Shown in pieces: positions 1-25,610 of a stretch of 41,518 nucleotides of DNA (position 1 is the first letter of the stretch; every line of letters starts with the position of its first letter). The DNA is taken from the IMG/VR virus record IMGVR_UViG_2802429248_000002; one strand, given 5' to 3'. Source of the stretch: a virus (taxonomy: Duplodnaviria; Heunggongvirae; Uroviricota; Caudoviricetes). The notes beneath the pieces were generated by a model, which did not search any database, had not been told where the DNA came from, and saw only the letters and a program-made list of their open reading frames with translations. Position numbers and translations under genes: made by a program.

Positions 1-516
1 ATGAAATTTAAAAAATGTTTTCTGCCTGTGGCAATTTTAGCGTCATTCACCCTGGCAGGATGCCAGTCAAATGCTGACGACCATGCCGCCGATGTCTATC
101 AAACCGCTCAACTGAATACAAAGCAAGAAACTAAAACCGTTAATATTATCTCCATTCTTCCCGCAAAAGTTGCCGTAGATAACTCACAAAATAAACGGAA
201 TGCGCAAGCCTTTGGCGCACTTATTGGCGCTGTCGCAGGCGGCGTTATCGGCCATAACGTTGGATCTGGTAGTAACTCCGGAACAACGGCTGGTGCAGTT
301 GGTGGCGGAGCTGTAGGCGCGGCAGCGGGTACTATGGTGAATGATAAAACCTTAGTGGAAGGTGTCTCTTTAACTTATAAGGAAGGCACCAAAGTGTACA
401 CCTCCACCCAGGTGGGTAAAGAATGCCAGTTCACAACGGGTTTAGCCGTTGTTATTACCACCACTTATAACGAAACGCGTATTCAGCCAAATACAAAATG
501 TCCTGAAAAGAGCTAA
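1..516 (+). CDS. Glycine-zipper lipoprotein (YcfJ/SlyB-like)
   Basis: ATG at position 1; signal peptide ending in lipobox LAGC; Gly/Ala-rich GxxxG zipper segment (AFGALIGAVAGGVIGHNVGSG...). Probably host-encoded or a terminal moron. Confidence 0.6.
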   Translation: MKFKKCFLPVAILASFTLAGCQSNADDHAADVYQTAQLNTKQETKTVNIISILPAKVAVDNSQNKRNAQAFGALIGAVAGGVIGHNVGSGSNSGTTAGAVGGGAVGAAAGTMVNDKTLVEGVSLTYKEGTKVYTSTQVGKECQFTTGLAVVITTTYNETRIQPNTKCPEKS

Positions 517-531
517 CTATCAGGAGGACTC

Positions 532-1074
532 ATGAAGAAAGTTTTTCTTTGCGCCGCCATATTAGCTGCTGTTAGTAGCCCGGCTTTCGCCTCTTCATTA
601 CAGGATCAACTCTCTGCGGTCGCAGAAGCTGAACAGCAAGGCAAAAATGAAGAACAAAGGCAGCATGACGAATGGGTTGCGGAGCGCAACAGGGAAATCC
701 AGCAAGAGAAGCAACGGCGCGCAAACGCTCAGGCCGCAGCGAATAAAAGAGCGGCAGCAGCAGCAGCGGATAAAAAAGCTCGCCAGGATAAACGGGACGC
801 CGAATTCACTGCGGATAAAAAGCGCGATCAAAGTTATGAAGATGAGCTGCGCAACTTAGAGATTCAGAAGCAAAAACTGGCGCTGGCAAAAGAAGAAGCG
901 CGCGTTAAGCGTGAGAACGAATTTATCGATCAGGAACTGAAACACAAAGCAGCGCAAACCGATGTTGTACAATCTGAAGCTGACGCTAACAGGAATATGA
1001 CTGAAGGTGGTCGTGATTTGATGAAAAGCGTGGGTAAAGCAGAAGAGAATAAATCAGACAGTTGGTTTAATTAA
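532..1074 (+). CDS. Secreted Lys/Glu/Ala-rich coiled-coil protein of unknown function
   Basis: SD-like caggagg just upstream of ATG 532; N-terminal signal peptide (..SSPAFA/SS); highly charged low-complexity body. Confidence 0.5.
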   Translation: MKKVFLCAAILAAVSSPAFASSLQDQLSAVAEAEQQGKNEEQRQHDEWVAERNREIQQEKQRRANAQAAANKRAAAAAADKKARQDKRDAEFTADKKRDQSYEDELRNLEIQKQKLALAKEEARVKRENEFIDQELKHKAAQTDVVQSEADANRNMTEGGRDLMKSVGKAEENKSDSWFN

Positions 1075-1131
1075 TCGTCTTTCCACTACCAGGCCTGTAA
1101 TTCGTGAGGATTATGGGCTTTTTAATTGCAT

Positions 1132-1349: not shown

Positions 1350-1832
1350 CTATCTGGTCAGGGTGTCGTACTGTTTTTCGCAGACTCTTCCGGCTTCGGC
1401 TGCCCGGTCAGCATACTCTGCCAGTTGTCTATTTCTCTCGAGAGATTTGCTGAACACGTCGGCAAGCAAAACTCCGGTGTCTGCGGCTGACGACCCAGCG
1501 CCGACAATGGCGTTATAGTGCCTGAGCTGCTCACGGATGGCAACGAGCTGTTGCTGCAACCGGCCAGCGCGAGCGGCAGCATCAAGAGCATCATTGCGCG
1601 CCTGGTCGATCCTCTGCTGCGCTTCACGTTCATTGATCGATTTCTCCTGTTCGTAGTGCTGACGAATTCTCTCATCTTCGGTTTTGCGGTCTTCTTTCGC
1701 CTGTGCATACCCAGCGTCGTACTGACGACTGCCGTGCACATTCCAGGCAACAACTCCTGATATGACCAGAACAGCAAGCACCGCCATGATAATCAACTGT
1801 TTACGGTATGCTTTTACGAATGACCAGATCAT
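1350..1832 (-). CDS. Rz-like i-spanin
   Basis: 160 aa, N-terminal TM helix then charged coiled-coil; immediately downstream of the endolysin; contains an embedded out-of-frame lipoprotein ORF. Confidence 0.6.
1358..1594 (-). CDS. Rz1-like o-spanin lipoprotein, embedded in the Rz reading frame region
   Basis: Alternative frame inside the Rz gene encodes [17 protein letters not shown]... (lipobox LAGC) followed by a Pro-rich short periplasmic segment. Start chosen at the first Met before the signal peptide. Confidence 0.5.
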   Translation of the reverse strand: MMLLMLPLALAGCSNSSLPSVSSSGTITPLSALGRQPQTPEFCLPTCSANLSREIDNWQSMLTGQPKPEESAKNSTTP

Positions 1833-2458
1833 ACAGCCAGCACCTTACTGGCAGTGACGTACCGCGCGCGCCGGTCGTCGATGCCATTCCTGCCACCATT
1901 GATAATCAGAGTTACACGTGCAATATCGCCGGTATACTTCATGCAACCTTTGCTGGAGAAGAACCACGCCGCGCTACGAGCCGCGTATTCGTCCTGCGCC
2001 AACAGTTCAGGATTCTCCAGCAGGTCCACTTTCAGGCCGTTTCCGCAATCACGATAGTTATTCAAACCGGTAATCTGGATAAGTCCGCGGCCACGGTAAT
2101 TCCAGCCATCGCCGGGGGCATTGTTCCCCATGCGTTTGCTGTACACCAGATTGGCAATCGCTCGCTGGCGCTCGAGTGGCAATGGTGGTTCACCAGCATG
2201 GCGACCCAGCGCATTAGCCTGCCCCTGAGTGAGACGCCCAGCCCGAACGAAGTTAGCCAGTCCGCTGACACTGTAGTTGAAATTCTCCTGCAACCTGGTG
2301 AAGCCCCCAGACTCATGCCCGACTTGAGCAATAAACATTGCCTGATCTTCTGCTTTGCTGATACCAAACTCTTTCATCGCAGAAGTTATATGCGAGAACC
2401 AGCGTGCGGCCAGCGCCTCGCTAATACCAGCAGCTCGCTGGAATTGTTTAATCTCCAT
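1829..2458 (-). CDS. Endolysin, glycoside hydrolase family 19 (chitinase-like lysozyme)
   Basis: Start taken at MEIKQF (ATG 2458-2456), not the longer track ORF. Motifs [12 protein letters not shown] and [18 protein letters not shown] match GH19 catalytic-region signatures from memory. Confidence 0.75.
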
Positions 2459-2756
2459 GTTTAGACCTCGATATTTTGAAAATCTGAACAACGTTACCGC
2501 GTGTTTTAATAACCGCGGCAAGCATGACAGCGTTGATAATGACCTCAGATAAATCCACAGCCATTGGCGTGCGTAACCAGATTGCATAGACGACACGAAC
2601 AGGAATACTGGCCGCAGCAACAATAAGGAAATAAGCAAGCCACCCTCCCCATCTTCGATGTTGAGAGCCGTTACGCCGGAATGTGACAACGCGAATTGCT
2701 ATGCCAGTACAAATAACTGCATTGGTGATAAGCAAAAAAAACTCATGCGTTACCAT
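2448..2756 (-). CDS. Holin-like small membrane protein
   Basis: 102 aa with 2-3 hydrophobic helices; its stop overlaps the endolysin start; position typical for a holin. Confidence 0.5.
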
Positions 2757-3147
2757 CGTCTTTTCTCCCCGGAATTAAATCGCGTGGATTGTCTGAACGG
2801 TGGTAGAGCCATATACCAATACGCACAGCGACAATTGCTGACACGAATGCGCCAGCAGAGAAAACAATCCCTTTTTCAAAAGAGTCCTGCGTGATGGTAG
2901 GGATCAGGCTGGCTATGCCGATAAGAATTGATGCTGCTGGTTTGTAGAAAAGAAGTCCACAGAGAAAGCTAAGCATCGATAAGAGTACGCGACGATGAAT
3001 TGGGTACTCTACCGCAGAGGTAACAAAAATTACCGCACCAGCAAGAGCACCGAGCGCCACCTCTGGCGGAACGCCTACGATAACTGCAGCAAGAGAGCTC
3101 ACACTAAGCCATTGATTTAAAGAATCAGTAGTTAGATGGGCTGACAT
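2743..3147 (-). CDS. Multi-pass membrane protein, putative holin/antiholin or lysis accessory
   Basis: Start taken at internal ATG (MSAHL...); the longer track ORF begins with GTG. 3-4 predicted TM segments; overlaps the start of the downstream holin-like gene. Confidence 0.4.
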   Translation of the reverse strand: MSAHLTTDSLNQWLSVSSLAAVIVGVPPEVALGALAGAVIFVTSAVEYPIHRRVLLSMLSFLCGLLFYKPAASILIGIASLIPTITQDSFEKGIVFSAGAFVSAIVAVRIGIWLYHRSDNPRDLIPGRKDDGNA

Positions 3148-3376
3148 AATGAACACCGTTTATTACGCATAACAATCTCCTTACTATTGAAGATTCACAC
3201 ATAATAAACCATTTAAGGATAATAGTTACCTCAAAACGCTGTATTTCTACCTTCTACGGCAATGAAAATTTCGTTCAGAAAATGGTCTAGTGTACCTCTC
3301 AGTCACAATTAAAGAAGAAAGAAGCCGAACTTACTTCGTAATAAGCAAGCCGGCTACTAAGATTAATCCTCAATAT

Positions 3377-6133
3377 TTAGCTACTTTCAAGCATTGCAAG
3401 ACGTGATTCTATTTTTTCGATTCTTCTACGCAAATAAGCTGACTCAAGCCATAAACACTGGTCAGTACGGATACCCCACCTATTTCCAGCCTTGCAAACC
3501 AGAGTTCGCTCTTCTGTTTCGTATTCTTCTTCCATCTCAATTTCGACGCCATCCACAACTTTAGTGATCATCCTTACCGCCATCACTGGCGCGTATTTAT
3601 CATCCCATTCATCGTAACAGAGAAGGCCAAATCTGGTTCCATCAATCCCATGCGCGAGGAAAGTGTCTCTCACTTGTTGTGCTATAACACCAAAATGCCA
3701 GCGGGCACCATCTCCCTTTTCCCTGACGGCATCAAGCCAGCGAAAAGCTACAATCCTGATATCTCCCCATGCATCCAGAATTGCATCACCTTCATAACCA
3801 CGAGACATATACAAGCTGAGCTCACTTGTACTAATCGGTTCACTTTTTTCTCTACCATCTGATGTGTTTATCGAACCGTTCGCAGAATAAACCTGTGCCC
3901 ATCTAAATGATGGTGCACCAAGAGATTTGCTGTTATCAATAATTGGTGAAAAATTACCTTTAATAGCAATATTTCCAGAGTCGCCGAATATATTAATAAC
4001 TGCAGAGTCATCACCATGGTTTTTTACGCTTAAGTTTCTTGATGAAATATTTATATCTTTGTTATATCCACTAACATTAATCCATCTTTTACCATCAATG
4101 TGATACCCGTAAATATTTCCGTTTGATTGTTCGTCAGGTGACTCTCTAAGAACAATAGCATCTACTCCAGACGACCATTGTATTTTTGTATCTGTAGGCC
4201 TCCAGTTCTTTATAATGAACGAACCATCAGTAAACTCCGTTTTTATTTGTCTATTGTCTACAAATGCGTCTCTTGGTTTAAACTCACTTGTGTTAACGCT
4301 GCTCTGAAGATCAGAAGCAAAAAATCTAAGATTTCCTGTATAACCCTTAGTCTCGGTCAGGTTATACGCAATCATAATTCCATTTTCAAACTCAGATGAT
4401 GTTATTTTAACATCACGGCAATCACCAAAAATGCAATTTCCTTTATCAAATGTTGTTTGAGCTTTGAATTTATCAAACCTTAAATTACGAACAGGGAAAC
4501 CATCAACCTCTAATGCAAAGGATGCAGGAAGGCCAAAGTATTCTGATGGCTTACCTGATGTATGATCAAGAGTAGTGGCTACTGTATTCTCAAAAACAGT
4601 CCCGCTAAAATTATTACCAATTGACGGAAACCTGATTACACTTATTGTACCTTGTATTTCAGGAGAAATACCAGATAGTGTGATGTTAGCTCCATCAAAT
4701 GATGCATCTGAATACGTATATACTGATTCACTGCCAGCAATTTTAAACTGTTTAACTGAAGTTATTCTCATCGACTTTTTATGTTTAAATGTCACTGAGC
4801 TTTCAGTATTACTTACAAGATCAATCTGAGGGCTATTCCTTATCGCGATCCCTGACTGGACATAAACGTTATTAAAGTGCGTTTTTTCAGGATTTCCCTT
4901 CATTGAAAGGCTCCCGTCATTTTCTGTCAGTAGTAGTCCTTTTACCCTCCAATAGCCGACAATCTGTACGTTATCAATAACTGAATCACAGCTATCGTAT
5001 ACATGCAACCCTATATCCCAGTCATCACCCAATGAATAAGAATCAGGGTTATTGTATCCTTCAATACCATTTTTACTTACCATTATTCTCAGGTTGCGTA
5101 ACTGTGATGCCCTGTTGATACTAACAGCTACGCTCATGGCTTTTGGTGTAGCAGGAGTAACACCTACAGAATCTTCATTTGTAAACTCAGTGAACTTACA
5201 AGATATCCCTTCAACAATTTTAACTGGTCTTTCATTAGAGATGTTAAAAAAATATTTGTTTTTTTCTCCATCACCAGTAAATACAAGATGGGTTCCTTTA
5301 CTCCAACTTTTTAATAATCTTTCAGGCGCTGGTCTATATGTATCCCAATAATCAATGCCATCACCAATTAAAGACACTCCAGGAGGCACATCTATGTTCT
5401 TAGAAATCATCCATTTACCTGCAGGTATTCTAACGACACTTGCACCAGAATTTATCGCATTAATTAACCATTCAGACGCATCAACTTCAAAATTTAATGC
5501 AGCATATCTTTGCTCAAACGGAACAAAATCAAGAGCGTTAACGTTATCCCGCATCTTATCCTGGAACGTTCGGTATACTGCTCCAGAACCATACTGAATA
5601 AACCAACCAAAACCACCAACAACTCCGGCGATTGCAGCATCAACATAATTGCGCATTGATCGATTATTTACAGCATCCTGCTCAAGTGATGGATCTGCAA
5701 GGTTAGAAATTTTGTTTTGCTTTGCATCGTAATATTTTGCAAGCAAAGATGGTTTCATCAATGCACGTCTGAACCATCCAAAACATTGCTGGATCAGCAT
5801 CGTCAGATAGTCAAAGGCATCTTCATGCACCTCGGGGAAAAATTTTCCCTGATTACGAAGATCAGTCTCCTGCACCACATCAAGCACACGATCTATCGTA
5901 ATTCGCCATCCAGCAGCAAGCGGCGACGGAAGAACAACAGAACCGCCACTATAAGTGCCCGCCCCTGTTACCGTATAACCGGTATCCAGAACCAATTCTG
6001 TTACGTTCCCGTTCAGGTCAGACACCTGAACAACCAGGTCGGATTTTTTGAAAATACGGAAGGTATACGGAAATGATGTCGTAGCTCCGTTACCTGTGTA
6101 TTCGTTGTGGTCAACTTCGGTTGAGACCGTCAT
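3377..6133 (-). CDS. Tailspike protein with C-terminal intramolecular-chaperone-like domain
   Basis: 918 aa. N-terminus MTVSTEVDHNEYTGNG..TSFPYTFRIFKKSDLVV resembles the conserved particle-binding head of epsilon15/phiV10-type tailspikes (memory). Central region is Asn/Ser/Gly-rich as in beta-helix depolymerases. C-terminal ~150 aa (..TSDGREK..) resembles the self-cleaving chaperone domain (peptidase S74-like) of endosialidase-type tailspikes. Confidence 0.8.
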   Translation of the reverse strand: MTVSTEVDHNEYTGNGATTSFPYTFRIFKKSDLVVQVSDLNGNVTELVLDTGYTVTGAGTYSGGSVVLPSPLAAGWRITIDRVLDVVQETDLRNQGKFFPEVHEDAFDYLTMLIQQCFGWFRRALMKPSLLAKYYDAKQNKISNLADPSLEQDAVNNRSMRNYVDAAIAGVVGGFGWFIQYGSGAVYRTFQDKMRDNVNALDFVPFEQRYAALNFEVDASEWLINAINSGASVVRIPAGKWMISKNIDVPPGVSLIGDGIDYWDTYRPAPERLLKSWSKGTHLVFTGDGEKNKYFFNISNERPVKIVEGISCKFTEFTNEDSVGVTPATPKAMSVAVSINRASQLRNLRIMVSKNGIEGYNNPDSYSLGDDWDIGLHVYDSCDSVIDNVQIVGYWRVKGLLLTENDGSLSMKGNPEKTHFNNVYVQSGIAIRNSPQIDLVSNTESSVTFKHKKSMRITSVKQFKIAGSESVYTYSDASFDGANITLSGISPEIQGTISVIRFPSIGNNFSGTVFENTVATTLDHTSGKPSEYFGLPASFALEVDGFPVRNLRFDKFKAQTTFDKGNCIFGDCRDVKITSSEFENGIMIAYNLTETKGYTGNLRFFASDLQSSVNTSEFKPRDAFVDNRQIKTEFTDGSFIIKNWRPTDTKIQWSSGVDAIVLRESPDEQSNGNIYGYHIDGKRWINVSGYNKDINISSRNLSVKNHGDDSAVINIFGDSGNIAIKGNFSPIIDNSKSLGAPSFRWAQVYSANGSINTSDGREKSEPISTSELSLYMSRGYEGDAILDAWGDIRIVAFRWLDAVREKGDGARWHFGVIAQQVRDTFLAHGIDGTRFGLLCYDEWDDKYAPVMAVRMITKVVDGVEIEMEEEYETEERTLVCKAGNRWGIRTDQCLWLESAYLRRRIEKIESRLAMLESS

Positions 6134-6307: not shown

Positions 6308-6328
6308 TTATTGCATGGAGAAGATAAG

Positions 6329-6586
6329 ATGCAGCAGTATCACTATCCACTGGAAGACGGATTTACCGAAAGGATTCACACGCCGGGAGGCGTCAGGTCA
6401 CTGGTGGAGGGATCGCACTTGATGAAATTACTCCGGGATCTCGATAAGGATGGATTTAATGTCGATGGCCCACTTGCCGAACTGACTGCACTGATTAACT
6501 ACGTCACCAGCTCACAGATGTCTATGCGGGATCTGCAAACACATCTCGACTATTGTGCCGAACAATTACGAAAACAAACCCGGTAA
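6329..6586 (+). CDS. Small SOS-regulated protein, antirepressor C-terminal-domain-like (Tum/Ant-like candidate)
   Basis: ATG 6329 with GGAG 8 nt upstream; 85 aa. About half its residues match the C-terminal ~80 aa of the Bro-N protein at 7732-8418 (shared LxxDG.DV.G..AELT...........RD.QTH). Confidence 0.6.
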   Translation: MQQYHYPLEDGFTERIHTPGGVRSLVEGSHLMKLLRDLDKDGFNVDGPLAELTALINYVTSSQMSMRDLQTHLDYCAEQLRKQTR

Positions 6587-6608: not shown

Positions 6609-7337
6609 CTATCGTTTCGCTTTGTGCTCATCCCAGCACGTTTTGCACCATGCCATTAAGCCGTCCGCATTTTGATTATTAGGGTAAAAGCTGGTTCGTT
6701 TTCTGCGGACATTACAAATTGGGCACCACTTCATATGGCGTGTATTCTTTGGGCCATCGAGACACCTTGCACACCATTTAGTCAATCCATCTGGATTTTT
6801 TGACGATTTCCTGAATTTTTCATATGGAAGGTTTATTCTGCATCGCAAGCACTGCTTGCTACCACTTGAAACTCTGTTAGCTGATTCTTCTTTTGGCGGC
6901 GATACAGAAGGTATTCTTGCTGGCTCTGATATTGCCTGAGGTGCTTTTTTAGATGACTGAGACGATATGTCATCACCAGGGAATCTTCCATGATATGCCG
7001 GACGCGTTGACACTCCAGGTGGAATCTCAGCTGTAAACGGCTTTGGCTGAATCAGTTGCCTCTCTTTTGCTAACTCCTGCTGTTTATAATATGTCTGGAT
7101 TACCGCACTATCATAAGCAGGAGGTGCGGAAATATTAGGCGCATTACCTCCAGTTTTTTGAAACTGAGTAGAGGTGTGTTCTATCACCTGTGTACGATTA
7201 ATCGTTATCTCCCCATCTTCGGTCTTTATCGTTTTGTTATGATTAACGACCGTACGATCAGAGATCTTAGTCTTGTTCTGGTTGATAACGTAAATAATCA
7301 CCGCAACCACACCAACAACTATCCAGAAAACTTCCAT
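6609..7337 (-). CDS. Membrane-anchored protein with tandem Cys-rich (zinc-ribbon-like) C-terminal repeats, unknown function
   Basis: 242 aa. N-terminal TM helix (EVFWIVVGVVAVIIYVI), Pro/Ser-rich linker, then two repeats of CxxC..(F/Y)..DGL..WCxxC. Operator palindrome about 20 bp upstream of the start codon. Confidence 0.55.
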   Translation of the reverse strand: MEVFWIVVGVVAVIIYVINQNKTKISDRTVVNHNKTIKTEDGEITINRTQVIEHTSTQFQKTGGNAPNISAPPAYDSAVIQTYYKQQELAKERQLIQPKPFTAEIPPGVSTRPAYHGRFPGDDISSQSSKKAPQAISEPARIPSVSPPKEESANRVSSGSKQCLRCRINLPYEKFRKSSKNPDGLTKWCARCLDGPKNTRHMKWCPICNVRRKRTSFYPNNQNADGLMAWCKTCWDEHKAKR

Positions 7338-7578: not shown

Positions 7579-7731
7579 ATGTGTAAAGCGCACCTATTCT
7601 ATGGTGGGCTGTGTGGGGGCACCGAAAGGTGCGCCGGGTCCTTTGTAGCCGGTTACGCCAACCCTGCACAGTTCACCACCAACCGATTGGCGTCGGTAGT
7701 GGTGATTAACCTAACTACAAAGGTGATCACT

Positions 7732-8418
7732 ATGACTGCTAACGTAACCCCATCTGTTTTTCATTTTGAATCAGAAGCAACCATTCGAGCCATTGTTATT
7801 GATGGAAATCCTTGGTTTGTTGCCAAAGACGTTATTAAAGCTCTTCAACTGACAAACCCCACTATGTCAATAAAATCTCTTGATGATGATGAAAGGGCTA
7901 AATTTAACTTAGGCCGTCAAGGCGAAACCAATATTATCAACGAGTCAGGCCTCTACACACTGATCCTCCGCTGCCGCGATGCGGTGACACCAGGCACTAT
8001 CCCATACCGCTTTCGTAAATGGGTTACAGGTGAGGTTCTTCCTCAGATCCGCCGCACCGGAAGTTACATTAAAAACTCGCTCCCGCAAGAAGAACGCATA
8101 AAGATGGTTGCCGACCAGGTAGCCAACGCCACAGCATCAGCAGTGATGCAGGCAATGAAGATAGAGAACAAAACCTACAGCGCCCCACTAAAGCCCGGCT
8201 ACCGCAGTCTGATTCACTCGCCGTCTGGTGTTCTCGGCCTGACGGAGAACTCACTGCTGATGAATCTGCTGAACCAGTTACAGGACGACGGGCACGACGT
8301 ATCGGGCGCGGCGGCGGAGTTGACCACCATGTTCTGCTACATCGTCGGTGTGAACAAATGCCTGCGTGATATCCAGACGCACGCGGAGTACATCAACGAC
8401 AAAGCAGGGTTCTTCTGA
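7732..8418 (+). CDS. Bro-N domain protein with antirepressor-like C-terminal domain
   Basis: Start taken at MTANVT (ATG 7732, aaaggtga upstream); the longer track ORF begins in a structured leader. N-terminus (FHFESEATIRAIVIDGNPWFVAKDVIKALQLTNP) matches the Bro-N signature; C-terminus is paralogous to the 6329-6586 protein. Confidence 0.7.
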   Translation: MTANVTPSVFHFESEATIRAIVIDGNPWFVAKDVIKALQLTNPTMSIKSLDDDERAKFNLGRQGETNIINESGLYTLILRCRDAVTPGTIPYRFRKWVTGEVLPQIRRTGSYIKNSLPQEERIKMVADQVANATASAVMQAMKIENKTYSAPLKPGYRSLIHSPSGVLGLTENSLLMNLLNQLQDDGHDVSGAAAELTTMFCYIVGVNKCLRDIQTHAEYINDKAGFF

Positions 8419-8434
8419 CGGGCGGTGGCATTCG

Positions 8435-8460
8435 TTAAAACAAGGCCGCTTTTGCGGCCT
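8435..8460 (-). terminator. Intrinsic terminator at the 3' end of the minus-strand virion operon
   Basis: GGCCGC-TTTT-GCGGCC hairpin (8444-8459) followed on the minus strand by TTGTTTTAA; lies just after the lipoprotein gene stop (8476). Confidence 0.55.
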
Positions 8461-8475
8461 GTGACATGTCACGAC

Positions 8476-8889
8476 TTATAAAGATGACTGATATTTTACA
8501 ACTCTGTTCATGGCATCTTTTTTCACCGAGCTGATATCAGTTCTTATTTTGGCTTCGTCATTACTGTTTATCATGCTATTAACTTTTTGCACTGACATGC
8601 CGTTTCTTTCAGCCATTGCACATACAGCAGCATCGTATGAAGAACTCGCTGCGATGGATATCACCTTGTTACACTCAAACACAGCACCTTCAGCAATATC
8701 AGATGCCGATGATGCTGGCTTGGTATAAGTCTTGACGTAGTGATCAATACAACTATCCTTCGCCGTCTTGGCAAGAGAAAAATCCATTTTAACTTTGTCG
8801 CAATATGCCTTATCAACACCGTCATAAACATCATAGGATGTCGAGCAAGCGGATATCAAAAATACCGATAACAGCAATAATTCCTTCAT
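8476..8889 (-). CDS. Phage-encoded lipoprotein (moron), candidate superinfection-exclusion or surface factor
   Basis: 137 aa; signal peptide MKELLLLSVFLISAC with lipobox; six further Cys; gene looks AT-rich by eye; tacked on 9 bp after the stop of the large internal virion protein gene. Confidence 0.55.
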   Translation of the reverse strand: MKELLLLSVFLISACSTSYDVYDGVDKAYCDKVKMDFSLAKTAKDSCIDHYVKTYTKPASSASDIAEGAVFECNKVISIAASSSYDAAVCAMAERNGMSVQKVNSMINSNDEAKIRTDISSVKKDAMNRVVKYQSSL

Positions 8890-8898
8890 TGTTGTTCC

Positions 8899-11373
8899 TT
8901 ATTGCGGAGTGACATCCTGAGGTCGCCACCAGTATGTCTGGTTAAACTCTTTCTTCGAACGTTGCTCCATTTTACGCAAATAGCCTGGTGAAAAATACTC
9001 CTGCATCTGGTTAAAGATCATATGATCGAGAGCCGCCTTCAAGTACCAGAGATTCGCACCTGGCATCAGCCCCTTCCCCAGCTTAACCAGATCACCACCA
9101 GTCTGCTCACTCTTCCCTTCCACAGCATTTAGCGGTATGCCCTGAGCTATCTTCACTACGTCATCAACCAGACCAGCTACCGGGCCAAGCATCGACGCCA
9201 GCGCGCCGCTCCCGTACCTAGTGTGGTCAGAGAAAAGAAAATCACCGTACAACCCAGCCCCGCCACCTTTTAAAAATGCATTTATCCAGAATTTAACCAT
9301 GTGGTCACCGGTCATTTCCTTTGGATTTCTCCCATTAATAAGATCAGTAATCTGCATGGAAAGAGCACCAAGCATGGTTGTGCTTGCTAAAAACGTTGCT
9401 ATATATGCTGCACGCCCACCAGCAGACGGCATACCCATAGCGCGTGACCAGTGACGCATAACAACCGAGATAGGGAACGATTTAAACAGGAAAACACTTC
9501 TCGTTAATTCACCTTTCCATGTTCCACGCTGAAGACCAGACCCTACGAACATCTGCTCACGTGCGCCCGGTGTAATAACAGCCATATCAACTTCTTCAGT
9601 TACGGCACCGAGCAGTTTACGCATTGCCTCAAATTTCACGCGTTCAGGCTCACCAAGATGTTTAACTGCTGAATCAGGGATACGCATAATGCTTTCCGGT
9701 GTCAGCATCGTATTATTACCGTTCCCCCAGTCCTCCTGTTGCGCCAGCTTCCATACGCTCCAGTCTGTGTCAGTAATCCCTTTACTTTTCAGGATACGAA
9801 AATCAGAGTCATCGAGGCTACGAAGGTCTGGTGTCCGTGACACTACTTCTCCCAGGCTTCCCATCATGGTTACGCCATAGGCGCGCTTGTGCGCATCTGA
9901 CCATGCTGTAAGCCCACTGGCACGCATTACCGCCGTTGCCGCCCAACGAGACACAGACGGCCCCATATTATCCATCGCCCAGCGGTTAACGCTGCCAAGT
10001 AGAGATTCCATCGCCAGGCCAGCGCGGCGCGCCCGCGCAAGCTCAGTACGGTTCGTTGGGTCCATAGCTTCAAGCTGGTTGCGAAATAACTGGTTCATTG
10101 GAAGGTTGGTAACCTTCGCAGACAGATACATGGTTCCAAGATCAGAGAACGATGACAGCAACGCGGATCCGAGTCTGCTGGCAACCAGCCAGTTGCGGAT
10201 ATTGTCAGACCATCGCGCGATGTGCGGATTCGCTACAGGCTGTGTTTTTCCGGAAATAAAGTTGTACAAGTTCTCTGTTTTGTTCGCCAGACGCTCGACG
10301 CTACCGGTTTTACTCGGGTTAGCTGTTGCCGTTTCTGCCTTAACCTGATCAAGAAGGGAGCGGAAAACATGATCGGGGTTTGGACCATATGTTTCCACCA
10401 GAGCAATATCTTTACTGATACCTTCCAAGTGACCGACCATGATTTCCCATAGAGAGCGATCACCATAAAGTTGTTGATATTGGAGATAGGAATCTGCATC
10501 TTTGAAATGTATCTGTCGTGATGCATTACCACGGTTAGCACGTGCGCCGGAAATTCGCATTCCGGTATCAGTAAGCTTATTCAGCCCACCAGTAGCGATC
10601 GTGTTATAAGCCTCTCCAAGAAATGCAGACAACTCGGCATCGTTCATCAGTTGTCCATCGGCTCGGGTATAATATTTGCGATCCAGCTTACCTATAACAT
10701 CGCCAACCCACTTATCCTTTGATACCGCCCCAACCTTTTCCATAGAATGATGTTGAGGGATCCCCCAGTTTTCGAGATAGCCAATGTCCCCACCAGCATC
10801 ATTAAACCGGCGGCGCAGCAGCTCTGTAACTTCTCTCCACGCCTTAGCACCTTTTCTTGCTTTAGCATTGCCAGTATTTTGCCCCCGCATTTCATATACC
10901 AGGTCACGTACGCCCGCTTCATCTTCAAACAGACCAAAAAAGCGAGGATCAACTGCTTCGAATGCCTCCTGCAATTGACTCAATGCATAATCACGGGTGG
11001 CTTTTGTTCTGGATTCAACAGAGAGGAAATTAGATTTACCGTCTGCATTAAAAGCTATAGTACGGTTAAGAGCTCCAAGTTTCCCATCAGCCCCTTGATA
11101 GCTATTGATAAATTTATCCAATCTCTGACGCGCGGCTATAGTGAGAGCCACACGACGTTTCTTTAATGCCGCTTCTCGCTGTAATTCTTCAGATGCCAAT
11201 TGTGCTGCTCGATATAGCCGCTCTGATTCGGAAAGTTGTCTCCACGACATCGGGTCATCACGAGCAATGGAGCGCATATTTCGATAAATGCGGTCTTCAA
11301 TGTTCTGTATTTCTCGCGCCGTTAACGTGCGCTGCGCCGCCTGCTGGACCGCTTGTATACATTCCTGTCTCAT
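8899..11373 (-). CDS. Large internal virion (core/ejection) protein, gp16-like by position
   Basis: 824 aa, last large ORF of the internal-protein series preceding the tailspike module; assignment by size and synteny only. Confidence 0.5.
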   Translation of the reverse strand: MRQECIQAVQQAAQRTLTAREIQNIEDRIYRNMRSIARDDPMSWRQLSESERLYRAAQLASEELQREAALKKRRVALTIAARQRLDKFINSYQGADGKLGALNRTIAFNADGKSNFLSVESRTKATRDYALSQLQEAFEAVDPRFFGLFEDEAGVRDLVYEMRGQNTGNAKARKGAKAWREVTELLRRRFNDAGGDIGYLENWGIPQHHSMEKVGAVSKDKWVGDVIGKLDRKYYTRADGQLMNDAELSAFLGEAYNTIATGGLNKLTDTGMRISGARANRGNASRQIHFKDADSYLQYQQLYGDRSLWEIMVGHLEGISKDIALVETYGPNPDHVFRSLLDQVKAETATANPSKTGSVERLANKTENLYNFISGKTQPVANPHIARWSDNIRNWLVASRLGSALLSSFSDLGTMYLSAKVTNLPMNQLFRNQLEAMDPTNRTELARARRAGLAMESLLGSVNRWAMDNMGPSVSRWAATAVMRASGLTAWSDAHKRAYGVTMMGSLGEVVSRTPDLRSLDDSDFRILKSKGITDTDWSVWKLAQQEDWGNGNNTMLTPESIMRIPDSAVKHLGEPERVKFEAMRKLLGAVTEEVDMAVITPGAREQMFVGSGLQRGTWKGELTRSVFLFKSFPISVVMRHWSRAMGMPSAGGRAAYIATFLASTTMLGALSMQITDLINGRNPKEMTGDHMVKFWINAFLKGGGAGLYGDFLFSDHTRYGSGALASMLGPVAGLVDDVVKIAQGIPLNAVEGKSEQTGGDLVKLGKGLMPGANLWYLKAALDHMIFNQMQEYFSPGYLRKMEQRSKKEFNQTYWWRPQDVTPQ

Positions 11374-11378
11374 TTAAT

Positions 11379-13181
11379 TTAACCTCTCAAGAAACACGCC
11401 ACAGCGACATCAAACAGGCTGGAATCCTGTATTGCCTGCTCACTTTCCCTGTTCGCTTCATCCAGTACTTCACGCGCGCTGCGCGATTGTGGATTACCAT
11501 CATCATCCAGCACGGTGATTATCATGTCCGGATATTCAAGCAGCGAGTCTTCAGCTATACGCAGATCAATATCTCCTGCCGGATCTGCCATCATTTTTTG
11601 TTCTGTCTGTTGCAATATCTTACCGGGCTCAAAAGGAGCTACTTCGTCTGGCGTCCTGACCTCTGCTGTTTTATAGAATGAAACAGCCTGAGCATTAAGT
11701 TCACTTTCTGCCTGCTGTCTCCGAGCCAGTTCTGCTCGAGCTTCAAAAAACTGACCGCCAGGCTCATGCGGTGCCAACGCGTTACGGGAAAATTCCAGGC
11801 GTTCTTGTGCCTGCCGGATTCGTTGGTCAATATCCCGAAGTCTGGCCTGTTTATCTGATCGAGCACGAGACAAAGCTTTACCGCTACCGGTTGGCTCTTC
11901 TGCAAGAATTTGTGCGCGCTGTTCAGTGAGATTTTCAATAATTCGTTGGCTATTAGCGATTTCAGACTGGTAAACCTGTCTATCGCCACGAGGCAAAAGC
12001 TGCGCAGCCTGTTCTTCAAGCAACCGATTTTCGATAGCGCGCGCCGTTACTCCATCATCTACAGATGACAGAGCCTCATTAACTGCCTGAGACAGCAGAT
12101 TCTTGCGCCCAGGAATTTCACTGAAAGATGCAGACTCAACAATGCTGGCTACGTCTACAGGTCTCCCCTGGCTAACATCAGACATGGCTTTTCGCAGAGC
12201 CTGAATGTGCGAATTACGCGAAAGCACGTTGATCGGCACGCCGGGAGCAATATCAATTTCAGCATGATGAGCGGCATTCGCCGCCAGTGCAGCATCGACA
12301 TCAACTGGTGAAAAATTTGGTGCGCTTGTAGACTCGCCGCGAGAGTTAATAAATCTGCCGACACCACCAAACGCCACCCCAAGAACAGCATCAATAGCAA
12401 TTGCCTGTCGATCCAACACATCATACTGGTTAGCCATTTCGCTATAGCCACCATCACGAAGCGTTTTTGCAGTAAGCCCACGCTGTGCCATACCGAACGC
12501 AATATTTGTACCTGCGGCATAGGCAATATCTGGCGTTGCACGTACTGCTGTTGCTGCGGCGCGTCGCACTGAACTTTCACCCGTCCGCGCAAGCTGAGCC
12601 GCCACACCTTCCGCCAGCGCACCACCAGCACGTAACCCGAGGCTCATAGGGATCAGTGTTCCGGCACCAGCAGTAATACCCTGCACTAATCCCGCTTCCT
12701 GCGCCGCCCTGAAATCAACCCCCTGTGCTGTCAGCCGTTCAAACTCAGAAAAACCCTGTAGCGAAGTTACCGCCGCTGCACCTCCGACCGGACCACCGAG
12801 CGTTGTACCGACAACAGCCTGCCCGCCCATATCGAACAACCCATAAAGAACCTGCCCGGCGGTTCCGGTTGTCGCGGCATCAGGCGTCAGCCGCTTAACC
12901 TGCTGCTCTGCTAGTTTTCTCTGCTCGGCAATGTATGAAACTGAAGTATCATTGAGCGAGGTGTTTTCGTTAATAAACTGAGCAATCGGGGATACGATTT
13001 TATCCATCCCTGCCCATAGCAACTGATCTGGCTTTGCCACCAGCCCGGAGTACAAACCAGACAATGCCGCTCCTACAGCATTGTCGAAAAAACCAACATC
13101 GCTGTTAAAGCCCGCTGGATTTGATGCTGCTTCGTCAAGTTGCTGATTCTGGTTTACTGGATTAAGGCCAAAGTAACTCAT
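11379..13181 (-). CDS. Internal virion protein (Ala/Gly-rich), function unknown
   Basis: 600 aa; Ala/Gly-rich central region; synteny between the gp15-like and gp16-like ORFs. Confidence 0.5.
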   Translation of the reverse strand: MSYFGLNPVNQNQQLDEAASNPAGFNSDVGFFDNAVGAALSGLYSGLVAKPDQLLWAGMDKIVSPIAQFINENTSLNDTSVSYIAEQRKLAEQQVKRLTPDAATTGTAGQVLYGLFDMGGQAVVGTTLGGPVGGAAAVTSLQGFSEFERLTAQGVDFRAAQEAGLVQGITAGAGTLIPMSLGLRAGGALAEGVAAQLARTGESSVRRAAATAVRATPDIAYAAGTNIAFGMAQRGLTAKTLRDGGYSEMANQYDVLDRQAIAIDAVLGVAFGGVGRFINSRGESTSAPNFSPVDVDAALAANAAHHAEIDIAPGVPINVLSRNSHIQALRKAMSDVSQGRPVDVASIVESASFSEIPGRKNLLSQAVNEALSSVDDGVTARAIENRLLEEQAAQLLPRGDRQVYQSEIANSQRIIENLTEQRAQILAEEPTGSGKALSRARSDKQARLRDIDQRIRQAQERLEFSRNALAPHEPGGQFFEARAELARRQQAESELNAQAVSFYKTAEVRTPDEVAPFEPGKILQQTEQKMMADPAGDIDLRIAEDSLLEYPDMIITVLDDDGNPQSRSAREVLDEANRESEQAIQDSSLFDVAVACFLRG

Positions 13182-15691
13182 TGCGGAATATCTCCGGAGA
13201 ATCTCTGACGCTTCTGTGTCAGATCAAGAACAACAGGAGAACCATCATCTTTCAGCAGATAACCAGTACCAAGTTTCACCAGGTACTGACTATCGCCGTA
13301 ACTTTGCAAACCATACTGACCAGGCGGTGTTTTTATCCCGGTGCCGACAACTTGTTCATTCCAAGCCTGATTAACCTGCTTATCGAATTGCTCTGCAGAC
13401 ATTCCCCACGGCAAAAGGACATTCCCCATTCCGTTATAGTCATGCACGCCACCTGTAGCTACGTTAACAGCCTGTTTCCAGATATCATTGTCAATTTCGC
13501 CTGATACCACGCCTTTTTTCGCCATCACACCAGCGTAATAATCCTTTGCGATCTCGTATGCCATTGATGCGCCCTGAGCGTCACCAGCAAATGCATCCTT
13601 CACCATGTCAGAAAACTCAAGGCGAAGATCAGCATCTTTAGGCATCGGAATACCTTTCGCATCATCAGTACCTTTACGAGCCGCCGCGCCAGCAAGAATT
13701 GTCTGCGCAGCGGTTTCAGGAGACACGGAAACATCCGGATTAAACCAGTTTTTTTCTGCCAAAATACCACCAGGCTTATCCATCAGTATCCCGGCAACGG
13801 CAGCAGATGGAGCGTTGGCACTGATCTGCTGTAGTGCTGACATATACACCTGCCCACCACCAGTGCTCTGCCTGATGGTATCGAGATATGCTGCCTGTTG
13901 GGAAACTGGAGCATCACGAAAGAAAACACCGATCTGATTGGCCTCGTCTTTGGAAAAGAACGTCAGTGGAGTGCCATATGACTTAGCAAGGTCACTGACC
14001 TGAGCGGCACGCAAGGCAACGCTCTGTCCAAAGTTATCCTTATTGCTCATGTCGATAGGCTTTGCCTGTCCGGAGGCAAGAGAGAACTGCACAGGATCCG
14101 ACTGCCGCTGCTTTATCACCTGATTTGCAGCCGAAACAACGTTGTCATAAAGAGTTGCGCGTGCCGCATACCCCTCCCCTGTATCACCAGTATCCGGGCG
14201 TAATTGCTCAACATATGCTGTAATGCTGCTTGTCGGCATGTTGCGGAAAGAGCCTATATACTGTCCGGCGATCTGCGTATTCTTAAACTCGGTATATCGC
14301 AGGTTTCCTTCTCTGACTCCATAAGCTGCAATAAAATCATCCTCACCAGGTGGGTTAGGAAATTCAATGCCACGCATATACGCAGCCGTCGCATCGCGAA
14401 CCCGGCTGTCGAGCATCGTTTTATATTCAGCCTGCTGTTGTCTGGCTAGTGCATCAGTCTGTCGCAACACGCTGGCCTGATCTGATTCACTTAAAGCATC
14501 GAACCAGGCTACACCGGTATAACGTTTATTTTTTGTCGGTAGCTGAGAAAGCCCCAGCGCAGCACTAACACCTGCAGTTAACTGCTGATCACTGTATGGC
14601 TGGCTACCGTTTTCATGATGGATAATGGCTGCACAAAGCGCCTTCAGGGTATCAGGATTTGATGCATCGAGAGGCTCATCAGCAGAAACGCCAAGTTGTT
14701 CGCACACTGCTTTGATATACGACATAGTGTCATTTTTATCAGTAGGCGGTGCCCAGCGATTAATTATCTCGCTGACGGTATCAATACCCTGCCGCTGATA
14801 CGACATCAGGTTCCGCCCTAATGCACGAATACCGTGTTCAGGGGTTTCGAATTTGGCAAAGCGACCATCATCACCAGTCTGCCCAACCCACGGATTAGTT
14901 TTGCTGTATTCAAGATTGCCGGGGTTATTGTTGCGTATACCGCGGGTACGATCGGAAGAGCCACTATCTGCTACAGCACGGCGAGAACCAGCAGCAGTAT
15001 CGCTTAACTCGCCGTTTTGCTGTCTTACCTGAAGATAGTTTGCTCCAATAGCATTTTGAGCAGTTGCTTTTGCTGTTGCTTCTTTAAACTCGATTTTCTT
15101 GGCCTGGATTTGCTCGTCACTCCAGCCATGTGCAATGCCGTAATCCTCAATTTGCTGGAAAGTTTGCTTATTAGCCAATACGTATGCGGCGTTGTCGCCA
15201 TACAATGCTGCGGCATTTTTACCATTGTTCAGCAGCGTCGCCTGAAACTGGCCTTCTTCGTAGGCATTTATTTGCCCTATCTCGTGCCGCCCGGCCTGCG
15301 TAGTGAACTGAATACGCTGCTGCTGCGCCTGCTGCATGAAAGCATTACGAGCCTGTTCATCCGGCAGCGACATAGCCAGTTGTTCGACCTGAGCATCAAA
15401 CTGCTGCGTATACTCCTGACCTTTTCCAATAGCATTTTTCCCTTTCAGGTTAAGCAAACCTGTTTCAGGGTTATTCAGCAGATCGCTGCTTATCTGGCTT
15501 AAGCTAAGAGAAGCATCCTGAGCCATAGCAACATTCGCACGCTGTTTTGCCTGCGCAATAATACCTGCATATTGCTCTGCAACATCGCCAAGTACATCAC
15601 CGACATTTGGTGTCTGAAACGATGAGAATCCCTGCGTCGAAATCCCTCTGCTTTGAACCTGACGGCCCGATGTTGTTGGTACAACTGGCAT
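13178..15691 (-). CDS. Internal virion protein, gp15-like by position
   Basis: 837 aa; overlapping stop/start with neighbours; contains a GIRNNNPGNLEY...FAKFETPEHGIRAL segment that may be a cell-wall-acting domain (uncertain). Confidence 0.5.
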   Translation of the reverse strand: MPVVPTTSGRQVQSRGISTQGFSSFQTPNVGDVLGDVAEQYAGIIAQAKQRANVAMAQDASLSLSQISSDLLNNPETGLLNLKGKNAIGKGQEYTQQFDAQVEQLAMSLPDEQARNAFMQQAQQQRIQFTTQAGRHEIGQINAYEEGQFQATLLNNGKNAAALYGDNAAYVLANKQTFQQIEDYGIAHGWSDEQIQAKKIEFKEATAKATAQNAIGANYLQVRQQNGELSDTAAGSRRAVADSGSSDRTRGIRNNNPGNLEYSKTNPWVGQTGDDGRFAKFETPEHGIRALGRNLMSYQRQGIDTVSEIINRWAPPTDKNDTMSYIKAVCEQLGVSADEPLDASNPDTLKALCAAIIHHENGSQPYSDQQLTAGVSAALGLSQLPTKNKRYTGVAWFDALSESDQASVLRQTDALARQQQAEYKTMLDSRVRDATAAYMRGIEFPNPPGEDDFIAAYGVREGNLRYTEFKNTQIAGQYIGSFRNMPTSSITAYVEQLRPDTGDTGEGYAARATLYDNVVSAANQVIKQRQSDPVQFSLASGQAKPIDMSNKDNFGQSVALRAAQVSDLAKSYGTPLTFFSKDEANQIGVFFRDAPVSQQAAYLDTIRQSTGGGQVYMSALQQISANAPSAAVAGILMDKPGGILAEKNWFNPDVSVSPETAAQTILAGAAARKGTDDAKGIPMPKDADLRLEFSDMVKDAFAGDAQGASMAYEIAKDYYAGVMAKKGVVSGEIDNDIWKQAVNVATGGVHDYNGMGNVLLPWGMSAEQFDKQVNQAWNEQVVGTGIKTPPGQYGLQSYGDSQYLVKLGTGYLLKDDGSPVVLDLTQKRQRFSGDIPQ

Positions 15692-15703
15692 CTTATTATC
15701 CCC

Positions 15704-16243
15704 TTATCGACCGGTTGGAGTGCCAACAGCAGCAGAAATCGGCGCAGCTTTCTGAGAGAACGGGCTCCACGTTCCGCCGCCCATCTGGTATGCACCGTAT
15801 GCTTTTAGTGGTGCCGTTAACAAAGTGCTGGTCATCGATGATTTAGCAGCCGACTGAGCAGCAGCCCCCTGTGCCTGAGCATTCATTCCCTGAACCTGAT
15901 ACCCATATGCCTCACGCTGAGCATTATTCACTGTCGTTAACGCATCAAGAGTGCCGAACTGAGCATTATCCGCAAAAACGTCAAGAGCTGTTCCGCTACT
16001 TAATTCCGCACCGGTAGCCCCCATAGTGGCCGCCGCAGTGCCTGAGCGTTGACGCATTTCACGACGACGCTGATCCGCTTCAATATTCCCACGATTGATT
16101 GAATCCTGTGCCTGAGCTTCAGCAATTTCAGCATTCCGATCAGCTATGGCTGACTGGTATTTTGCCTGCTTGCTCTGGCTGTACATTGACGCGGCTGTGG
16201 ATGCCACTGTGACGGCAACCAAAGCGATGGCTGGGTTACACAT
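15704..16243 (-). CDS. Internal virion protein, gp14-like by position
   Basis: 179 aa, Ala/Gln-rich, N-terminal hydrophobic segment; synteny. Confidence 0.45.
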   Translation of the reverse strand: MCNPAIALVAVTVASTAASMYSQSKQAKYQSAIADRNAEIAEAQAQDSINRGNIEADQRRREMRQRSGTAAATMGATGAELSSGTALDVFADNAQFGTLDALTTVNNAQREAYGYQVQGMNAQAQGAAAQSAAKSSMTSTLLTAPLKAYGAYQMGGGTWSPFSQKAAPISAAVGTPTGR

Positions 16244-25311: not shown

Positions 25312-25388
25312 GTGGCATTAGCTCAGTTGGACAGAGCAACCGCCTTCTAAGCGGTTGGTCGCAGGTTCGAATCCTGCATGCCACGCCA
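25312..25388 (+). tRNA. tRNA-Arg (anticodon UCU), phage-encoded
   Basis: Cloverleaf readable by eye: acceptor GTGGCAT/ATGCCAC, D-arm GCTC-AGTTGGACA-GAGC, anticodon stem ACCGC/GCGGT with loop CTTCTAA, variable TGGTC, T-arm GCAGG-TTCGAAT-CCTGC, discriminator G, encoded CCA. Confidence 0.9.
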
Positions 25389-25431
25389 GAATCACGCCTA
25401 AGGACCGTGATGCCAGAAGTTCCAGGGGCTT

Positions 25432-25473
25432 GGCGGTGATGGTTTCCCTTGAAGGGCTATCACCGCCCTTTTT
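25432..25473 (+). terminator. Intrinsic terminator downstream of tRNA-Arg
   Basis: Stem GGCGGTGAT (25432-25440) / ATCACCGCC (25459-25467) followed by CTTTTT. Confidence 0.6.
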
Positions 25474-25550
25474 ACAGCAGGACGCCATTGCGATGACTTC
25501 ATGCTGTAAACCAGTACAGCCACGGAAGGCATAACTCATTGCTTCCAGTT

Positions 25551-25576
25551 CGCCCGGTTCGCCGGGCATTTTTTTG
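25551..25576 (+). terminator. Second intrinsic terminator (TTCG tetraloop hairpin plus T7 run)
   Basis: GCCCGG-TTCG-CCGGGC hairpin (25552-25567) followed by seven T. Confidence 0.6.
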
Positions 25577-25591
25577 CTTGATGACCGCAAA

Positions 25592-25606
25592 TTACCTTAA
25601 AGGTAT
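25592..25606. promoter_or_regulatory. Operator palindrome TTACCTTAAAGGTAT overlapping the RBS/-10 region of the cargo gene
   Basis: Ends 4 nt before ATG 25611; a consensus TATAAT hexamer (25604-25609) overlaps its right arm. Confidence 0.45.
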
Positions 25607-25610
25607 AATC

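Follow-up and report, generated by a model that had tools for sequence, protein, structure and literature searches.

Some receptor-blocking lipoproteins of the outer membrane are phage-encoded, among them Llp of phage T5 and the Cor proteins of phages phi80, N15 and HK022, and Spackle of phage T4 is a periplasmic inhibitor of the gp5 tail lysozyme. Llp, which contains a disulfide, resides in the inner leaflet of the outer membrane and shuts off FhuA on the side of the periplasm; its domain of ~62 amino acids (aa) is beta-rich, and the disulfide is essential for activity (bioRxiv 10.64898/2026.03.26.714494). The mEpimmI coliphages carry exclusion lipoproteins (Lpp types A–D) inside the structural cluster, and the cloned genes exclude the cognate phages (PMC11893012). 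In phage P22, the gene for SieA lies between gene 16 and gene 9, and its product blocks the ejection-protein conduit (PMC10883804). Ltp of Streptococcus phage TP-J34 is a prophage lipoprotein reported to block DNA injection via the incoming tape-measure protein (PMC3952083; cited in PMC10883804). Here, we describe the gene for a 137-aa lipoprotein in IMG/VR record IMGVR_UViG_2802429248_000002, of which the whole stretch of 41,518 nucleotides, a nearly complete epsilon15/phiV10-like (Uetakevirus) prophage, is called the window. Its product may be a further entry blocker of the envelope, a kind of protein already known from phages and mobile elements; the sequence and structure family to which it belongs is uncharacterised and unrelated to Llp, Cor, Ltp, SieA and Spackle.

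With sieA of P22, the gene shares a position between the last ejection gene and the tailspike gene, in a mosaic anti-repressor region, the presence in only a subset of the related phages, and an envelope protein as its product. This is a positional match and not one of membership: the SieA motif FxRYPxEAxxFNK (PMC10883804) is absent from the window lipoprotein, and the two are not related in sequence or fold. Moreover, SieA is a polytopic inner-membrane protein expressed in lysogens from a promoter of its own, PsieA, whereas the window protein is a predicted outer-membrane lipoprotein for which no promoter was detected. The way in which SieA acts, by obstructing the conduit of incoming ejection proteins, nevertheless serves as the model for the function proposed below. 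With Llp and Cor, it has in common that it is a phage-encoded lipoprotein, with a lipid anchor predicted to lie in the outer membrane's inner leaflet. However, Llp has ~62 aa, is beta-rich, contains one disulfide and binds FhuA, while the window protein has ~123 aa in its mature form, four cysteines apart from the lipidated one and an all-helical model; the primary receptor of the window phage is the O-antigen, bound via the tailspike, and not FhuA. Searches of Pfam, PHROGs and NCBIfam matched no family of exclusion lipoproteins, and Foldseek returned nothing from PDB at E ≤ 0.001. The mEpimmI phages provide a likeness in arrangement, with lipoprotein genes of several unrelated sequence types within the structural cluster of temperate coliphages, but they are another phage group, with outer-membrane proteins (OmpA or LamB) as receptors. 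Ltp is similar in being a prophage lipoprotein aimed at a component of the incoming phage rather than at a receptor; it differs in its Gram-positive host and its fold family and has no sequence match to the window lipoprotein.

The lipoprotein and its gene

The gene and the features adjoining it are arranged in the window as follows.

8476..8889, minus strand: open reading frame (ORF) of the lipoprotein, 137 aa, ATG start
8845..8889, minus strand: codons of the signal peptide and lipobox, MKELLLLSVFLISA then C15, with Ser at +2, as read from the sequence
8890..8898, minus strand: intergenic spacer of 9 bp; a Shine-Dalgarno sequence, AAGGA, overlaps the stop codon of the 824-aa gene
8443..8460, minus strand: Rho-independent terminator hairpin with a 7-bp stem (six GC pairs), then UUGUUUU
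8899..11373, minus strand: gene for the 824-aa internal virion (ejection) protein (phrog_684, virion structural protein)
11379..16243, minus strand: rest of the ejection/internal block, with proteins of 600 aa, 837 aa and 179 aa (T7_gp14 family)
7579..8418, plus strand, convergent: gene for a Bro-N/Ant-like anti-repressor of 279 aa (Bro-N, E = 7.9e-20; phrog_130, Ant)

A first-pass annotation of this DNA had proposed a lipoprotein of 137 aa here, and both the ORF and its N-terminus bear this out: MKELLLLSVFLISA followed by CST fits the lipobox pattern [LVI][ASTVI][GAS]C with cleavage before C15, and it agrees with a PROSITE PS51257-type rule (Lys within residues 1–7, an uncharged h-region, Cys at 15). 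Read in this way, the protein is a bacterial lipoprotein, a substrate of Lgt, Lsp and Lnt, with a signal peptide of residues 1–14, which is also its sole hydrophobic segment, and a predicted mature form of ~123 aa lipidated at C15. One member of the lipoprotein family matches LPAM_1 of Pfam (E = 0.004). In Enterobacterales, Asp at position +2 leads to retention in the inner membrane (the Lol avoidance rule); all family members have Ser, Thr or Gly there and never Asp (Ser in the window protein), which points to the outer membrane as the likely location. The window protein has a single Pro and five cysteines (15, 30, 47, 73 and 90), thus four beyond the lipobox and not six, as had been counted earlier.

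The four cysteines are invariant across the family, in the pattern C-x16-C...C-x16-C, i.e., with 17 residues within each pair. AlphaFold2, supplied with a nine-sequence alignment, yielded an all-helical model (mean predicted local distance difference test score, pLDDT, of 86.7, with most of the mature domain exceeding 90), in which two long helices, formed by residues 24–55 and 74–96, are predicted to run antiparallel. The first long helix bears C30 and C47, while the second has C73 at its start and C90 in its interior. Because the equal 17-residue spacing suits an antiparallel helical hairpin, we infer two disulfides, C30–C90 and C47–C73. A profile search of PDB sequences returned designed helical proteins only, with E > 0.1, and Foldseek found nothing at E ≤ 0.001 in PDB or in BFVD, the latter holding viral structures.

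A small, helical periplasmic domain with predicted stabilisation by disulfides would also suit an immunity-type inhibitor of an incoming cell-wall or envelope enzyme, comparable to T4 Spackle or to the lipoproteins that inhibit lysozyme, lytic transglycosylases or bacteriocins. A possible target is the lytic-transglycosylase (SLT) domain in an ejection protein of a superinfecting epsilon15-like phage, and an SLT domain is found in an ejection protein of related phages. Like T4 Spackle, the window protein is small, secreted and periplasmic, and just past the signal peptide there is a weak resemblance between the two, the motif G-[VY]-D-K-x-[YL]-C-[DE] (GYDKDLCE in Spackle, DGVDKAYCD in the window protein). 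However, Spackle is soluble and non-lipidated, with a precursor of 97 aa and two cysteines in the mature part; the match to the Spackle family (PF25676) has an E of 0.74, covers just residues 1–56 and reaches 10.9 bits where the cutoff is 27, and an hhalign comparison with T4 Spackle was not significant (probability 24%, 28 columns). We hold such an inhibitor to be improbable. The signal peptide of Spackle contains a lipobox-like LASC (T4 sp gene at 2759-3052 of L031, compared with 8479..8889 of the window). Separately, DUF1311/LprI, a four-cysteine helical family of lysozyme inhibitors, was considered as an identity of the window protein and rejected: it is absent from the Pfam scan at E ≤ 10 and from the top matches of the fold search.

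The gene is real and under strong purifying selection. The ratio of nonsynonymous to synonymous substitution rates (dN/dS) between the window gene and a Citrobacter/Enterobacter-type copy is 0.049 (dN 0.025, dS 0.51), and even homologues as distant as 26% identity are alike in length, lipobox and cysteine pattern, which together speak for a real gene. The protein matches phrog_8691 over its full length (E = 1.6e-91, residues 1–137 of 137), and this group carries no assigned function. The family is tiny: out of billions of proteins, ~10 clusters belong to it. When 5.8 billion clusters were searched by indexed words, 17 proteins emerged; nearly all come from E. coli, Enterobacter and Citrobacter with 95% identity or more, while one is at 82% and one, from Cedecea, at 54%. 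Four distant relatives (E between 5.7e-32 and 3.3e-4) were contributed by an exhaustive HMMER search, in which a profile was run over 1.84 billion representatives, and a repeat of the profile search gave two further members. The distant members that bear on the function proposed below match the profile with E between 6.7e-9 and 3.3e-4. All members have 137–142 aa and a lipobox; the four distant members scanned (P0018, P0020, P0022 and P0032) each match phrog_8691 independently, with E between 2.5e-8 and 2.4e-47. A tblastn search of 50,697 phage genomes with the window lipoprotein and with P0022 gave no match; the phage copies are known only from prophages and metagenomes. For the window lipoprotein, this negative counts against homology with the lipoproteins of the mEpimmI phages, provided that the mEp genomes are included in the set. 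A search for related loci with a narrow alignment returned nothing among the GTDB species representatives, and searches of the literature on Uetakevirus lipoproteins and on the RefSeq id of the protein found no reports.

Upstream, the gene follows that for the 824-aa protein at the 9 bp first noted; this spacing is constant across all 26 IMG/VR relatives, while the gap is 2 bp in Cedecea, and translation of the lipoprotein is possibly coupled to that of the 824-aa protein. The block ahead of it, previously called a virion-core operon, deserves that name: it consists of the T7_gp14-family protein of 179 aa (Pfam match with E = 8.2e-8, above the Pfam cutoff), then the 837-, 600- and 824-aa proteins, and it is homologous to phiV10 p18–p20 and corresponds to epsilon15 gp14–gp17. 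The 824-aa protein is 96% identical to p20 of phiV10 and homologous to gp17 of epsilon15, annotated as a virion structural protein; the ejection proteins of epsilon15 have been reviewed (PMC8954989). Downstream, the hairpin at 8443..8460 (−17.3 kcal/mol; z = −3.5 relative to shuffles) marks the end of the late structural operon, opposite the convergent Bro-N/Ant gene, so that the lipoprotein gene does stand just ahead of the operon terminator. Its reported AT-richness is likewise confirmed by a GC analysis: 39.1%, against 49.2% and 51.5% in the two upstream genes and 48.8% in the window, which corresponds to the 6th percentile among all 414-bp segments. As a promoter scan 5′ of the lipoprotein start detected nothing sigma-70-like, the gene seems to belong to the late structural operon as its final cistron.

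That the gene comes last in the virion-core operon is the one point that would suggest a virion component or an assembly factor of the internal core. Lipoprotein biogenesis involves transport across the inner membrane, while capsid-internal proteins are assembled in the cytoplasm; the predicted export and lipidation, by way of the lipobox signal peptide, would thus rule out a capsid-internal protein. In addition, the core proteins of phiV10 are 96–97% identical to those of the window, yet phiV10 does not carry the gene, and homologues exist without any phage structural genes. A role in the virion, therefore, is hardly tenable.

Being the last cistron of the late operon, close to the upstream gene and devoid of a detected promoter, the gene could also serve the lytic cycle itself. 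Its product would then mask an envelope component against loss of progeny on debris or outer-membrane vesicles from lysed cells, or modulate the timing of lysis; prevention of progeny loss has been proposed for T5 Llp too. Nevertheless, a complete lysis cassette is found elsewhere (1350..3156), ~93% of the related E. coli prophages do without the gene, and homologues reside on plasmids and islands, elements devoid of a lytic cycle, which makes a late helper quite improbable.

A cassette-exchange slot behind the ejection genes

DNA similarity to phiV10 and other Uetakeviruses exists on both sides of the lipoprotein gene and not across it. The E. coli P4 prophage is nearly identical to the window, and in all 26 IMG/VR relatives, the lipoprotein gene comes directly after the homologue of the 824-aa gene. 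Four Citrobacter/Enterobacter-type contexts, Cedecea and a metagenomic phage likewise have it behind the last of the large genes for ejection proteins; in the metagenomic phage, with a copy of only 26% identity, a gene for a 191-aa secreted protein intervenes, whereas in the other contexts, drawn from NCBI and Logan, the two genes are directly adjacent. Amongst 5,426 complete E. coli genomes, ~320 carry the 824-aa gene type, and only 22 of these have the lipoprotein; the carriers are human and animal isolates. Elsewhere, the slot between the last ejection gene and the convergent anti-repressor gene is filled by other proteins.

Window: slot at 8419..8898; equivalents at L001 6185-6325, L062 7327-7521, L028 133-513, L032 2009-2305 and L016 1133-1708
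phiV10: 46-aa peptide with two transmembrane segments, despite a 96% identical 824-aa protein
epsilon15: gp18, 64 aa, two transmembrane segments
Salmonella phage 65FD: 55-aa version of the phiV10 peptide
E. coli 07_3722: 98-aa protein with multiple transmembrane segments
Phage ZX5 and E. coli 463: unrelated lipoprotein of 126 aa
Metagenomic phage: 191-aa secreted protein together with a member of the lipoprotein family

Each occupant is a small envelope protein, and the five scanned fall in five different PHROGs without a function. The lipoprotein cassette is richer in AT than its surroundings wherever it occurs: its GC content is 35–41% in prophages (surroundings 49–56%), 34% on a plasmid (41.5%) and 30% in islands (37–40%). 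The slot, bounded by the Bro-N/Ant gene on the side opposite the ejection genes and within a mosaic region, is a cassette-exchange hotspot, and the lipoprotein gene is one of its AT-rich, exchangeable cassettes. Relatives often carry extra cargo between the Ant gene and the slot (e.g., L033 2147-2308 and L061 2357-2518): a GC-rich gene for a 53-aa secreted Gly-rich peptide (“transmembrane anchored protein”) or a protein of 210–272 aa without a function.

The tailspikes of lipoprotein-positive prophages have only the N-terminal ~165–250 residues, the head-binding region, in common in most loci, and just one of the 26 IMG/VR carriers has the same full-length tailspike as the window, so that receptor-binding domains have been swapped extensively. 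Carriage of the lipoprotein is independent of tailspike type, which argues against the primary O-antigen receptor as its target. Between the E. coli-type and Cedecea-type loci, the lipoproteins are 54% identical, the gp14-like proteins 66% and the conserved parts of the 837-aa proteins 54%. A tight co-evolution of the lipoprotein with the adjacent 600-aa and 824-aa proteins, which was considered as well, is not supported (54% against 26% identity).

Superinfection exclusion and host fitness as candidate roles

The family is confined to mobile elements, namely epsilon15-like prophages, integrative islands of Morganellaceae and small plasmids of Proteus and Providencia. The copies in Providencia and Morganella islands, ~26% identical to the window protein, are accompanied by an integrase, AlpA, DUF3987 and YagK/YfjJ, and they neighbour genes for GajB (5e-121; Gabija-like), a DruE-like protein (2e-53; Druantia-like), a type I and a type III restriction endonuclease (E = 0 for the latter) and a defence dGTPase (2e-141). 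P0032, 29% identical, is one of the two annotated ORFs on non-mobilizable 2.4-kb Col3M plasmids of Providencia (NZ_CP135992.1, 2428 bp) and is also found on 4-kb plasmids of Proteus (NZ_CP066834.1, 4044 bp); none of the plasmids with a family member has phage genes. Function thus needs neither a virion nor a lytic cycle. In a metagenome contig, P0032 adjoins a gene for a pentapeptide-repeat (Qnr-like) protein.

We tentatively favour, at somewhat below even odds, a superinfection-exclusion factor that would be anchored in the outer membrane, face the periplasm and block the entry of other phages. The first-pass annotation had already suggested a block of the phage's receptor or injection route, with T5 Llp and Cor-like proteins as examples; the general idea is the reading best supported by our data, while the kinship with Llp or Cor is not borne out. 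The support is circumstantial and consists of the predicted export, the slot reserved to envelope proteins, the sieA-like position and the presence of distant members in defence islands. According to this proposal, the precursor would be processed by Sec, Lgt and Lsp, and a tether of ~8 residues would keep a compact domain of ~115 residues close to the membrane on its periplasmic face; this all-helical domain would have its two long antiparallel helices stapled by the disulfides C30–C90 and C47–C73. It could bind a conserved component of the outer membrane that the phage requires once the O-antigen is bound or, alternatively, the outer-membrane end of the incoming ejection conduit, where a tube would dock on the gp14-like pore. 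With either target, the DNA of a second phage would be kept from crossing the envelope. Between the E. coli-type and Cedecea-type phages, the divergence of the lipoprotein (54% identity) resembles that of the gp14-like protein (66%) and of the conserved part of the 837-aa protein (54%).

Several observations weigh against superinfection exclusion. The promoter scan described above leaves expression from a repressed prophage unsupported, unlike the case of sieA, and expression may be confined to the late phase of lytic growth. No homologue of the lipoprotein has a known function: scans of the window protein and seven relatives with Pfam, NCBIfam and PADLOC gave nothing above threshold, and with the defence hidden Markov models of PADLOC-DB, the window protein had no match, the best one for any family member having an E of 0.006. 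The context of defence islands is guilt by association, and the island copies look like conserved neighbours of the AlpA–DUF3987–YagK backbone rather than part of a variable hotspot. The 600-aa and 824-aa proteins next to the lipoprotein are only 26% identical between E. coli-type and Cedecea-type loci. Finally, carriage on tiny plasmids fits a role in host fitness equally well.

Such a role, that of an outer-membrane lipoprotein of lysogenic conversion kept for the benefit of the host (serum or complement resistance, stress tolerance, colonisation), has precedents in lambda Bor, Iss and TraT, which are lipoproteins of serum or complement resistance. It would agree with an AT-rich cassette in a moron slot, with members in clinical Proteus, Providencia and Morganella, where they lie on small plasmids and islands, with carriers among human and animal E. 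coli isolates, and with the lack of a detectable tie to any phage receptor type. On the other hand, neither Pfam nor NCBIfam revealed a likeness to Bor/Iss or TraT, a terminal cistron in a late operon, with no promoter of its own detected, is a poor fit for a gene of constitutive benefit, and the other occupants of the slot are small envelope proteins behind ejection genes as well, which suggests a phage-related theme. A gene for host fitness is, in our opinion, unlikely, though worth keeping in mind.

If superinfection exclusion were the function, the protein would represent a new sequence and structure family of single-gene exclusion lipoproteins and the first exclusion determinant for epsilon15/phiV10-like podoviruses besides O-antigen modification. 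A bolder version, which we consider doubtful, would make it a new class of envelope defence: a disulfide-stapled helical lipoprotein beneath the outer membrane that caps or mis-assembles the outer-membrane end of the podovirus ejectosome, with its gp14-like pore and docking periplasmic tube, an outer-membrane counterpart of SieA, and a stand-alone, single-gene anti-podovirus system common to prophages, defence islands and small plasmids across Enterobacterales. The recurring envelope-protein slot is a more general lead than the lipoprotein itself: behind the ejection genes, it is always filled by a small membrane, lipo- or secreted protein, from at least five unrelated PHROG families without a function. 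The parallel with sieA of P22-like phages suggests what could be a general rule for finding entry-blocking genes of podoviruses. Such genes bear on the host range of phages of the phiV10 type that serve as reporters or in biocontrol of E. coli O157 and Salmonella.

Other genes of the prophage

Further features of the window, from the left flank to the integrase, are listed below; strands are given where assigned.

1..1077: left flank with yfgH-yfgI; the prophage directly abuts yfgI
1350..3156: lysis cassette with Rz/DUF2514 and its embedded Rz1, a GH19 endolysin and two holin-like genes
1350..1832, minus strand: Rz (DUF2514), with an o-spanin (Rz1) candidate embedded in the +1 frame
3377..6133, minus strand: tailspike, 918 aa, with a C-terminal Peptidase_S74 intramolecular chaperone domain
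6311..6586, plus strand: ORF of 91 aa, homologous to the C-terminal domain of the 279-aa Bro-N/Ant protein
6609..7337, minus strand: 242-aa protein (phrog_6762) with an N-terminal transmembrane helix and a Cys-rich C-terminal part with repeated CxxC
Rightwards from the mosaic region with the Bro-N/Ant gene, minus strand: the long structural operon
25312..25388, plus strand: tRNA-Arg (anticodon TCT), inside the prophage, adjoining an AT-rich stretch at ~25427..26500
40262..41518: integrase, at the right end of the window

The Rz1 candidate embedded in 1350..1832 has a lipobox and a Pro-rich mature part with additional Cys. An o-spanin role for the lipoprotein at 8476..8889 was rejected, as this embedded Rz1 exists and the window protein is helical, has ~123 aa in its mature form with a single Pro, and is encoded 6.6 kb from the lysis genes. 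The tailspike gene is as AT-rich as the lipoprotein gene (GC 39.7%, and 31% at third codon positions). Both the 91-aa ORF and the Bro-N/Ant protein match phrog_450 and phrog_15539; these shared matches imply that the C-terminal domain of the anti-repressor also exists as a stand-alone protein beside the tailspike gene, as do epsilon15 gp19 and phiV10 p24. The gene for the 242-aa protein is present in only five of the 26 IMG/VR relatives; its Cys-rich region has weak matches to endonuclease VII, Stc1 and Lar-like proteins, and the combination of a membrane anchor with a zinc-ribbon domain is an unusual pairing. As for the host, the left flank (1..1077) is 90.7% identical to yfgH-yfgI of E. coli P4, compared with 98% in the structural region of the prophage, and the host may belong to a divergent Escherichia lineage or to another species.

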